NCBI GenBank assembly: GCA_050123375.1
Contig: JASFHF010000006.1
Location: 2,309 to 66,308 of the forward strand
Direction: 5' to 3'
Origin: Gammaproteobacteria bacterium
Lineage (GTDB): Bacteria > Pseudomonadota > Gammaproteobacteria > UBA12402
Length of the DNA: 64,000 bases
Shown: positions 33,208 through 34,581 of the stretch, piece by piece
How positions within the stretch are numbered: position 1 is the first letter of the stretch
Layout of the letters: every line of letters begins with the position of its first letter
Translations under genes and position numbers: made by a program
The notes under the pieces: model-generated
Told to the model about the DNA's origin: nothing
The model's input: only the letters and a program-made list of their open reading frames with translations
Database searches by the model: none

Positions 33208-34581
33208 TTAGATGAAAACGTCATGTTCACCATTTTCAATTTTCTGTAACATTGTTTCCGTGAATGCTCGTTGTTTTGTTGGCATAGTAGAAATTTCTTG
33301 TTGAATTAATTGTTCGCCAATCTTTTTGGTGCTTTTGCTCGCATAATCTGATAAATATTCTTTGAATGTTACTAAAGCATTTGGGGCGCACATATCTTTT
33401 ATTTTACCTGGTTTGGCTAAATCCATAAAATCGTGGCCAGTACGTCCTAAACGATAACAAGCGGTACAAAAGCTTGGTATATAACCCATCGAGGCAACAT
33501 CTGCAATTACTTCGTCTAAACTGCGGTGATCTCCAAGTGAAAATTGACTCGCATTTTGTTTTTGTTCTGAATATCCTCCGGGATTTGTTCGACTGCCGGC
33601 AGAAATTTGTGAAACGCCAAGTGCTAAAGCTTTACGTCGTGTTTGCGGAGTTTCGCGTGTCGATAAAATAATTCCGGTATAAGGAACTGCAATTCGTAAG
33701 ATTGCAATTAATTTGGCAAAATTTTCGTCAGAAACTGGATTTGGAGGATTACTTGATAATTCTGAACCAAATGCTGGTTCTAATCTTGGTACGCTAATTG
33801 TATGCGGGCCAACGCCGTAAGTTTTATTTAGATGTTCGGCATGTTGAATTAATGCTAATAATTCAAATCGCCAATCTGCAAGTCCGAATAATACTCCGAT
33901 ACCAACATCATCAATATCAGCTTGCATCGCACGATCCATTGCTTCAATTCGCCAATCATAATTGGATTTTTTTCCAGATGGATGAACTTTTTGATAAATT
34001 TCACGATGATAAGTTTCTTGAAAGACGATATAAGTGCCAATGTTTTCAGCTTTCAATTGACGAAATTCTTCGATAGTAAGCGGTGCAATTTCGACATTCA
34101 AACGGCGGATTTCACCATGCTTGGTTTTGGTTTTATAAACAGTGCGGATTGATTCAAGGACGTATTCCAAAGCATTGTCGCTTTGTTCTTCACCGGTTAG
34201 CAATAAAATACGTTTGTGTCCTTGATTGATTAAATTAGTGGTTTCTGCAGCAATTTCGTTTTGGGAAAGTGCGCGGCGTTTTAATCCTGAGTTGGTTTTG
34301 CGGAAAGCGCAATATGCACAATCATTAGAGCAAAAATTAGAGATATATAAAGGGGCGAAAATCACCAGTCTTTTGCCGTAAATAATGTTTTTGATTTTTT
34401 CGGCCGTGTGAAATAGTTCTTGAGTAAGCTCAGGATCGCGGATTAAGGTGAGCATTGCGACTTCATCATAATCCAAGCCTTGTAATTCTAAGGCTTTAGT
34501 TAGGATAGCACGGATATGCCCTGAGTCGATTTTAGTGTGTTTTTCTAGAGAGTCGATAATTTTGCGTTCGTTAATGATCAT
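33208..34581 (-). CDS. hydG: radical SAM tyrosine lyase HydG-type ([FeFe]-hydrogenase maturase family)
   Basis: N-terminal CSNDCAYC (CX3CX2C). C-terminal CTACYRLGRTGHDFMDLAKPGKIKDMCAPNALVTFKEYLSDYAS (CX2CX22C) and terminal IENGEHDVFI are hallmarks that separate HydG from ThiH. Start set at MIINERK (34581) because the longer ORF would overlap the parE start. Confidence 0.7.
   Translation of the reverse strand: MIINERKIIDSLEKHTKIDSGHIRAILTKALELQGLDYDEVAMLTLIRDPELTQELFHTAEKIKNIIYGKRLVIFAPLYISNFCSNDCAYCAFRKTNSGLKRRALSQNEIAAETTNLINQGHKRILLLTGEEQSDNALEYVLESIRTVYKTKTKHGEIRRLNVEIAPLTIEEFRQLKAENIGTYIVFQETYHREIYQKVHPSGKKSNYDWRIEAMDRAMQADIDDVGIGVLFGLADWRFELLALIQHAEHLNKTYGVGPHTISVPRLEPAFGSELSSNPPNPVSDENFAKLIAILRIAVPYTGIILSTRETPQTRRKALALGVSQISAGSRTNPGGYSEQKQNASQFSLGDHRSLDEVIADVASMGYIPSFCTACYRLGRTGHDFMDLAKPGKIKDMCAPNALVTFKEYLSDYASKSTKKIGEQLIQQEISTMPTKQRAFTETMLQKIENGEHDVFI

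Follow-up and report, generated by a model that had tools for sequence, protein, structure and literature searches.

The 64-kb stretch of DNA analysed here (hereafter, the window) carries on its reverse strand, at 33208..34581, a coding sequence for a radical-SAM tyrosine lyase/H-cluster maturase, HydG, of 457 aa, as judged by the TIGR03955 profile, PDB alignments and dN/dS. The longest open reading frame at this place (33208..34662, reverse strand) has a TTG start; the ATG at 34581, which yields the 457-aa product, is the start used in the JGI call (P0001, 457 aa), and the N-terminus that begins there, MIINERK or MIIDERK, is common to the window protein and its relatives L001 and L081. We saw no clear Shine-Dalgarno sequence before this ATG. 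The left neighbour, which lies 71 bp from hydG and is transcribed away from it, is parE, encoding topoisomerase IV subunit B (34653..36539, forward strand; Pfam HATPase_c/DNA_gyraseB/Toprim), and the right neighbour conserved in the clade is a nudF-like NUDIX hydrolase gene (31845..32474, forward strand), recognised from annotation and from the relatives. The order parE-hydG-nudF, with hydG alone, recurs in all four clade members with readable surroundings (the window, L001, L081 and the P0012 contig). Since this position has been stable over 74-100% protein identity, hydG would be regulated apart from any partner genes.

A sequence-only reading of this DNA had placed a histone-like gene next to hydG, and such a gene is indeed present just downstream: a Lys/Arg-rich ORF (32775..33053, reverse strand) whose 92-aa translation contains 55% Lys+Arg, has a pI of 12 and shows KRKxTK repeats and an H1-like composition. 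It is kept in L001 (100 aa) and L081 (104 aa), where the number of repeats varies, and a Pfam search gave no family match. Ahead of it lies a promoter-like TTGATA-16-TATAAT element (33135..33162, reverse strand) that agrees at 11/12 positions, a consensus match only, among promoter-like sites whose total across the region is not above the shuffled expectation; behind it lies a terminator-like hairpin of 10 pairs, six of them G-C, with a T-run (32733..32757, reverse strand, read from the sequence). No terminator-like hairpin was found between hydG and the basic-protein gene. Given that the latter has its own near-consensus promoter, the adjacency of the two genes shows no functional link.

The window gene is a true hydG orthologue, normal and well conserved by sequence. 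Its product passes the NCBIfam equivalog profile for HydG, TIGR03955, scoring 569.4 bits where 312.15 are required (residues 3-455 covering profile positions 12-468 of 470), whereas it misses the cutoff of 380 bits for ThiH, TIGR02351, reaching 321 bits over residues 27-370 only; the earlier assignment to HydG rather than ThiH thus holds. A PDB search aligned it with HydG of Thermoanaerobacter italicus (TiHydG, 4WCX; E 4.9e-145, window residues 3-456) and, end to end, with HydG of Carboxydothermus hydrogenoformans (ChHydG, 4RTB; E 2.5e-121), and it resembles both in length, in the two Cys motifs, in the conserved His and in an IENGE.D-type tail. With ThiH (PDB 7PD1) it has the radical-SAM tyrosine-lyase core in common (E 6e-59, window residues 16-371), but ThiH, of about 370 aa, ends after the BATS domain and lacks an auxiliary-cluster domain, while the 457-aa window protein conserves a Cys-rich C-terminal domain. 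The observation is in itself an ordinary one and a matter of routine annotation, as NCBI already calls the protein of the same contig HydG by name (P0002, 464 aa; accession MGD9152526.1); the JGI label is "2-iminoacetate synthase".

HydG, a two-cluster radical-SAM enzyme, makes the CO and cyanide that iron-only hydrogenases carry as ligands: tyrosine is cleaved at its N-terminal SAM cluster, and at its C-terminal five-iron auxiliary cluster the dehydroglycine fragment is converted to CO and CN- on a cysteine-chelated "dangler" iron. The ligands of both clusters are in place. The CX3CX2C motif of the radical-SAM [4Fe-4S] cluster (CSNDCAYC, residues 84-91; C84/C88/C91) is encoded at 34309..34332 and the CX2CX22C motif of the C-terminal auxiliary cluster (CTACX22C, residues 372-398; C372/C375/C398) at 33388..33468, both on the reverse strand, and all six cysteines are invariant in 200/200 aligned HydGs. 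The protein ends in KIENGEHDVFI. Both Cys motifs and the terminal IENGE.D motif named in the earlier reading are accordingly found in the translation, the C-terminal Cys motif being intact on re-inspection. It has been reported that this CX2CX22C motif is essential in maturation (PMC9431212), and that His265 of TiHydG ligates the fifth, "dangler" iron (PMC8162317). A candidate for this ligand is His260 in GPHT (codon at 33802..33804, reverse strand; conserved in 200/200), whose equivalence to His265 would follow if the window residue plus 19 gives the 4WCX SEQRES index and this index equals the published numbering plus 14, an offset deduced from E133 (PMC9046217) and His265 (PMC8162317) and not from coordinates. 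His247, present in 199/200 HydGs, is the alternative candidate, and His200 too is invariant across the 200 HydGs.

The residues around the tyrosine carboxylate are more variable: the window HydG and its inner subclade carry the triad L128/E164/I185, as opposed to E/N/V in TiHydG and V/N/Q in ChHydG, and the outer clade members, equally unlinked, have N164/Q185 with V or E at position 128. E164 corresponds to E158 of ThiH, the substrate-carboxylate binder, so that the glutamate stands at the ThiH position and not at the TiHydG position 128 (PMC9046217). Other residues assigned to tyrosine binding in ThiH/HydG are T299, R300, R306, S318 and S321. We considered the change V128L/N164E/Q185I as the mark of a neofunctionalised HydG subtype and rejected it, as an L/E/(I,V) triad also occurs in the Spirochaetota HydGs of TM1266-hydG-hydE-ammonia-lyase operons (L072, L075, L078, L080); moreover, ThiH and HydG are known to place the glutamate for the substrate carboxylate at alternative positions (PMC9046217), which undercuts the idea further.

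The window HydG belongs to a monophyletic clade of 12 members with 74-100% identity (99% bootstrap in a neighbour-joining tree), in all of which (12/12) the hydG frame is intact. In the phylogeny it is placed among HydGs from hydGFE(+hydABC) clusters, with no sign of the non-hydrogenase HydG-like clade that had been raised as a possibility. The unlinked hydG is under strong purifying selection without rate acceleration: its dN/dS against L001 and L081 is 0.046-0.109 at a dS of about 0.5, these pairs of genomes giving 0.039-0.050 with parE and 0.09-0.125 with nudF. Moreover, operon-linked HydGs have 120 invariant columns (defined on 51 HydGs adjoining hydE and hydF), of which 113 are kept by every clade member, and the distance to operon-linked outgroup HydGs (0.52-0.53) lies within the 0.47-0.56 spanned by related low-GC groups, among whose members some are operon-linked.

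The statement that hydG is encoded without hydE, hydF and hydA stands for the 64-kb window: tblastn with about 200 HydE, HydF and HydA sequences from related loci found nothing besides HydG and the ferredoxin domain of a pyruvate:ferredoxin oxidoreductase (PFOR). It does not stand as a statement about the genome, unlinked maturase genes being frequent; among 80 GTDB loci (flanks of up to 10 kb), about 17 lack a HydE-like ORF and about 27 a HydF-like ORF. Since partners are so commonly missing from a stretch of this kind, their absence from 64 kb is no proof that the genome lacks them. The Spirochaetota operons mentioned above have no hydF within 10 kb, and in Clostridium acetogens hydE, hydG and hydF have distant locus tags (PMC9431212, Table 3). 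These cases are like the window in that hydG stands apart from hydF and/or hydE, yet an [FeFe]-hydrogenase is made, and differ from it in keeping at least one gene of the hydrogenase system, be it hydE or the gene for a TM1266-family regulator, next to hydG, whereas the window has none.

Further comparisons come from related clusters where a maturase operon begins with hydG: hydG-hydF in the related low-GC P0016, hydG-hydF-hydE in L002 (Gammaproteobacteria GWE2_42_36), L016 (GWF2_41_13), L082 and L086, and dfx-rub-x-hydG-hydF-x-hydE in L083 and L084 ("Coxiella sp. DG_40"), where hydA-hydB-hydC, for a trimeric hydrogenase of the NuoE/NuoF type, also lies within 10 kb. The HydGs of these clusters, at 63-67% identity, are among the closest to the window HydG outside its clade, and GC is 0.35-0.38 in L082, L083, L084 and L086 and 0.43 in L002 and L016; in the window, in contrast, hydG is alone.

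Further searches for the partners gave the same picture. In three other clade members, the 4.9-10 kb covered on each side of hydG contained no hydE, hydF or hydA. When 5.8 billion proteins were searched with HydF and HydE profiles, none of the at least 120 matches listed for each could be attributed to the lineage; the profiles had been built from gammaproteobacterial operons, and the matches listed levelled off near 60% identity across phyla. An accession look-up for low-GC NCBI HydF/HydE candidates returned none, and only for the window HydG did it return one, MGD9152526.1. Two low-GC candidates picked by FYMINK/GARP amino-acid ratio, P0269 and P0139, proved to belong to other lineages, in clusters of the usual kind with hydG alongside, and were discarded. 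Metagenome contigs were scanned with a degenerate DNA pattern based on a HydF motif peculiar to the low-GC group, and this gave 23 loci. Of these, L091, L096 and L110-L112 contain hydB-hydA-hydC adjoining hydE-hydF and lack hydG over 12.6 kb, their non-hyd flanks having a GC of 0.334-0.341; this hydBAC/hydEF arrangement is the mirror image of that in the window and occurs in a related low-GC lineage. As the missing partner locus itself these contigs were not accepted: tblastx revealed no shared flanking genes, and in tetranucleotide composition they correlate with the window at 0.82-0.89, compared with 0.95 for L001 and L081. On both grounds the hydG-less contigs are probably not of the same genus as the window.

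In the rest of the window, the earlier reading had also pointed to a PFOR, and this assignment was borne out: the gene at 53518..57078 (forward strand), 19 kb from hydG and unlinked to it, encodes a nifJ-type pyruvate:ferredoxin/flavodoxin oxidoreductase of 1186 aa (TIGR02176, 1808.6 bits). The window has two CX2CX2CX3CP motifs, both of them in PFOR, and the scan for this motif found no free-standing ferredoxin there. PFOR fits a low-potential electron economy. The other window genes comprise housekeeping genes, genes for a HemN-like radical-SAM protein and a dehydrogenase of the Ldh/Mdh family, and several large ORFs without a family match; among the annotated ORFs no respiratory genes were found and no thi genes (thiG, thiS, thiF etc.) were recognised, and scanning the window for Rfam families and tRNAs gave nothing relevant. 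The description of the organism as aerobic-looking and probably intracellular finds no support in the window, respiratory genes not having been found.

Collectively, we regard the window gene as probably (about 0.75, judged from sequence) encoding a working H-cluster maturase whose partners are encoded elsewhere in the genome. We postulate an ancestral hydG-hydF-hydE cluster, from which hydG became separated in an uncultured low-GC gammaproteobacterial lineage and came to stand alone between parE and nudF. It would now probably be transcribed on its own, or possibly with read-through into the gene for the small basic protein; its partners, hydE and hydF along with a hydrogenase (for instance of the hydABC type seen in relatives), would most likely be found at other places in the genome, and PFOR may plausibly supply reduced ferredoxin. 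H2 metabolism in the source lineage is plausible, because its HydG groups with HydGs of hydGFE clusters and the constraint on it is unchanged. Together with the complete hyd clusters of the relatives, HydG and PFOR suggest that this uncultured group of low-GC Gammaproteobacteria is fermentative and H2-cycling, which would be of modest ecological value; anaerobic Legionellales have been described as rare (2026 preprint, 10.64898/2026.04.11.717937), which would bear on the present MAG only if it belongs to that order.

The same facts could be read differently, in that the whole low-GC, possibly host-associated clade may have lost hydE, hydF and hydA and kept a constrained hydG at a housekeeping locus. 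The candidate tasks proposed for such a stand-alone HydG are the supply of free CO and CN-, of an Fe(CO)2(CN) unit for another acceptor or for a host, or of dehydroglycine/p-cresol. It would agree with this that hydG is by itself in every clade member with readable surroundings and that no HydE or HydF among the matches listed could be attributed to the lineage, but since those matches saturate at about 60% identity, absence of the partners does not follow. The glutamate at the ThiH position in the inner subclade (L128/E164/I185) could be part of such a functional shift; however, L/E/I is also found in the Spirochaetota HydGs encoded next to hydE, and the outer members, which are unlinked too, retain N164/Q185. 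Additionally, neither a rate shift nor a loss of auxiliary-cluster ligands accompanies the isolation of the gene. We know of no function of HydG outside H-cluster assembly, and our search of the literature found no report on an orphan or stand-alone HydG. We therefore consider this reading unlikely; if true, with the partners missing genome-wide, it would matter to hydrogenase biochemistry, as HydG would then have a second, hydrogenase-independent role where none is known.

It is very improbable that the protein replaces ThiH, delivering dehydroglycine to ThiG for thiamine thiazole synthesis, as its JGI label implies. The tyrosine-lyase half-reaction is common to HydG and ThiH (PMC9046217) and residue 164 is a ThiH-type Glu, but the profile scores (321 bits with a cutoff of 380 for ThiH, 569 with a cutoff of 312 for HydG) and the thi genes, of which none was recognised among the annotated window ORFs, speak against it, as does the C-terminal cluster domain of about 90 residues, which would be useless in ThiH chemistry and is nevertheless fully conserved under purifying selection. 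Also very improbable is a gene in decay, left over from a hydrogenase system since lost, its ORF still open and its product non-functional: isolation from the partners and an ATG without a clear Shine-Dalgarno sequence might be expected of one, but a dN/dS of 0.05-0.11 at a dS of about 0.5, an intact frame in 12/12 clade members at 74-100% identity and the retention of all catalytic ligands would not. Finally, although the contig comes from a metagenome assembly, the chance that assembly or binning joined the hydG of another organism to it is negligible, as parE-hydG-nudF recurs in independent JGI, ENA and GenBank assemblies and the GC of hydG (0.381) is near that of parE (0.417) and PFOR (0.405), all three slightly above the window mean of 0.352.

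We consider that the hydG gene of the window, judged from its sequence, would most probably encode a functional, ordinary H-cluster maturase whose partner genes are unlinked, a reading to which we give a probability of about three in four. The longest minus-strand ORF at hydG, 33208..34662 (-), opens with a TTG that would overlap the start of the opposite-strand parE, and the ATG at 34581 gives a product of 457 aa. This ATG is the start in JGI's call on the same contig (P0001) and agrees with the N-terminus MIINERK/MIIDERK conserved in two relatives; NCBI's call (P0002) is 7 residues longer (464 aa), and a clear Shine-Dalgarno sequence is not seen upstream of the ATG (34582-34662). 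The translation contains CSNDCAYC (CX3CX2C, residues 84-91), CTAC-X22-C (residues 372-398) and the C-terminal KIENGEHDVFI. Moreover, the protein scores 569 bits against the HydG equivalog model of NCBIfam (cutoff 312), while its 321 bits against the ThiH model stay under the cutoff of 380, and its Pfam domains are Radical_SAM and BATS. Two HydG crystal structures, from Thermoanaerobacter italicus (TiHydG; 4WCX, E 4.9e-145) and Carboxydothermus hydrogenoformans (4RTB, E 2.5e-121), match it along its entire length, whereas the alignment to the ThiH structure 7PD1 ends at residue 371. At the sequence level, the protein has the model score, both cysteine motifs and the conserved histidines that define HydG, and it falls short of the defining features of ThiH. 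Given the motifs, model scores and structure alignments, the sequence-only reading, which had called the protein HydG rather than ThiH from both cysteine motifs and the IENGE.D tail, was correct in every detail of its sequence observation, and the C-terminal cysteine motif was upheld on re-reading.

The same reading had found no partner genes in the window, and our searches agree: tblastn with about 200 HydE, HydF, HydA, HydB and HydC sequences from related loci matched only HydG itself and the ferredoxin domain of PFOR. The window HydG falls in a clade of 12 members (74-100% identity) that 99% of 500 neighbour-joining bootstrap trees recover as monophyletic, without settling on a sister group. 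Four members were read in context, namely the window, its relatives L001 (95%) and L081 (88%), and the 113-kb contig of P0012 (74%); all four share the order parE-hydG-(basic protein)-nudF-DUF2845, with no hyd genes around hydG within 4.9-10 kb a side. Related low-GC lineages carry hydG-hydF (P0016) or hydG-hydF-hydE (L002, L016, L082, L086), and the 'Coxiella sp. DG_40' group has desulfoferrodoxin-rubredoxin-x-hydG-hydF-x-hydE. In L084 hydA-hydB-hydC lies a few kb from the maturase genes, and in L083 only the end of hydA is seen, at the locus edge. We infer that the ancestral state may have been a maturase operon, from which hydG would have moved out at the base of the window's clade. In these 'Coxiella sp. 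DG_40'-type MAGs (GC 0.35-0.36) the genes form a compact anaerobic island (L083 9133-15734, L084 5351-16358), where the first x of the above order is a 93-aa protein and the second, ahead of hydE, an unknown ORF that measures 308 aa in L084 and 612 aa in L083; the L084 hydA encodes 623 aa, and homologues of the 93-aa protein also occur upstream of or near hydG in L003, L024, L013 and L043.

Unlinked maturase genes are common. In a survey of HydG relatives at 80 GTDB loci, with flanks of up to 10 kb a side, a HydE-like ORF was present in 63 and missing from about 17, and a HydF-like ORF was present in 53 and missing from about 27 (NCBIfam models run on L002 served to check which families these ORF clusters represent). 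Spirochaetota hydG loci are without hydF nearby, and in Clostridium acetogens hydE, hydG and hydF have distant locus tags (PMC9431212, Table 3). The unlinked copy is under strong constraint: each clade member keeps 113 of the 120 columns that are invariant in 51 HydGs with hydE and hydF both adjoining, including the six cluster cysteines and His200, His247 and His260, the last of which would correspond to the dangler-iron ligand His265 of TiHydG (PMC8162317). Between the window, L001 and L081, hydG dN/dS is 0.046-0.109 (dS about 0.5), and the same genome pairs give 0.039-0.050 for parE and 0.09-0.125 for nudF. The mean distance to seven outgroup HydGs adjoining hydE, hydF or hydA genes (0.52-0.53) lies between the extremes seen in related low-GC groups, some members of which are operon-linked (0.47-0.56), hence no rate acceleration is seen.

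A truly stand-alone HydG, an unlikely reading, would be the sole one of real interest, and the interest stays low unless the partners are shown to be absent genome-wide. Profile searches found no HydF or HydE attributable to the window's MAG among the best 120 matches of each, which saturate near 60% identity and span phyla; two low-GC candidates turned out to lie in hydG-linked clusters of the usual kind, in other lineages. With a DNA pattern built on a HydF motif restricted to the low-GC group, 23 metagenome loci were recovered. Five of one lineage (L091, L096, L110-L112) carry hydB-hydA-hydC beside hydE-hydF with hydG absent in 12.6 kb, the converse of the window, where hydG stands alone. 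These loci show that hydG unlinking occurs in the group, but they are not tied to the window's genus as its partner locus: their tetranucleotide correlation with the window is 0.82-0.89 (vs 0.95 for L001 and L081) and they have no flanking genes in common with it; the GC of their non-hyd flanks is 0.334-0.341. In L110 (1-12224; JGI 3300032963 Ga0364887_10761), hydB (643 aa)-hydA (587 aa)-hydC (188 aa) is convergent with hydF-hydE, and the cluster has as neighbours a protein of 801 aa that matches no family and one that is NRPS-like. A ThiH-like role is very improbable, a decaying remnant slightly more so and an assembly artefact the most. Each is contradicted; what speaks against them is the model scores together with the conservation of the C-terminal domain, the selection analysis and a synteny that recurs in independent assemblies.

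An inner subclade (at least 81% identity to the window) carries V128L, N164E and Q185I together in otherwise invariant columns (nt 34198-34200, 34090-34092 and 34027-34029). We rejected the triad as a new HydG subtype, the state being shared by Spirochaetota HydGs in TM1266-hydG-hydE-ammonia-lyase operons. In ThiH, E158 holds the substrate carboxylate, and the position is Asn in HydG, with E133 of TiHydG compensating (PMC9046217, ThiH-tyrosine structure). In our alignment ThiH E158 falls at window residue 164, and ThiH position 128 and TiHydG E133 at residue 128; TiHydG itself has E128 and V185 in window numbering. Among 200 HydGs, N164 is always paired with Q185 (176, mostly V128) and E164 always with a hydrophobic 185 (24, mostly L128), the E164 state, which puts the glutamate at its place in ThiH, being distributed over the window's subclade, the Spirochaetota operon HydGs and scattered other sequences. 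This strict pairing, along with the glutamate mapping, points to one binding site that genuine HydGs arrange in either of two states, of which the window has the ThiH-like placement; we found no description of such a within-HydG glutamate switch in the literature examined.

The window takes up most of a MAG contig of 67.6 kb that bears the label 'Gammaproteobacteria bacterium' (GC 0.35). The gene parE is divergent from hydG across 71 bp, and 154 bp downstream of hydG lies the histone-like gene noted earlier (32775-33053 (-)), which indeed encodes a basic protein of 92 aa (55% Lys+Arg, pI 12) with KRKxTK repeats. It has its own near-consensus promoter-like site (11/12) and a strong terminator-like hairpin on its 3' side; none was found between it and hydG. 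Its relatives (L001 11541-11843, L081 11570-11884) extend the range to 92-104 aa, 55-57% Lys+Arg and pI about 12, with the first 45 residues conserved and a varying number of KRKxTK/KKKxTK repeats; in composition the protein resembles H1-like nucleoid proteins, and no Pfam family matched. A NUDIX hydrolase, a DUF2845 protein and an SSF transporter follow in order, and the remaining window is mostly housekeeping (rho, thioredoxin, tRNA synthetase, zapD, pilMNOPQ, PBP1A, aroK and others), with a HemN-like radical-SAM protein and an Ldh/Mdh-family dehydrogenase.

The PFOR reported at 53518..57078 is genuine (1808.6 bits) and contains the only ferredoxin-type cysteine motifs of the window. It is plausible that PFOR would feed H2 evolution, as suggested earlier, since related MAGs have hyd clusters that are complete. 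Nothing in the window supports the further suggestions of an aerobic-looking or intracellular organism. An anaerobic Legionellales symbiont has been described as having PFOR, but with a hydrogenase of the [NiFe] type (2026 preprint, 10.64898/2026.04.11.717937), hence an anaerobic lifestyle in that neighbourhood would not be unprecedented. In L081, RCC1/WD40_RLD repeat proteins, a eukaryote-like domain, lie on either side of the hydG region (2857-4128, 18969-19960) and are absent at the matching window positions; together with many family-less large ORFs they are merely reminiscent of host-associated Legionellales. Four large window ORFs (462, 804, 596 and 404 aa; 24075-28824 and 50149-53324) lie within or beside its lowest-GC stretches (0.27-0.31); the first two matched nothing in Pfam and the others nothing in NCBIfam, and these genes may be specific to the lineage, effector-like or acquired. 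Both the window's clade and the operon-bearing relative L082 have an AAA_14/DUF4143 ATPase gene no more than a few kb from hydG (window 37377-38531 (-), L081 4750-5904, L082 16464-17786), probably by coincidence or as a mobile gene. Finally, an AbiEii-family nucleotidyltransferase toxin (60088-60951 (+)) and the overlapping upstream 211-aa ORF (59456-60091 (+), no Pfam match) are probably a type IV toxin-antitoxin pair.
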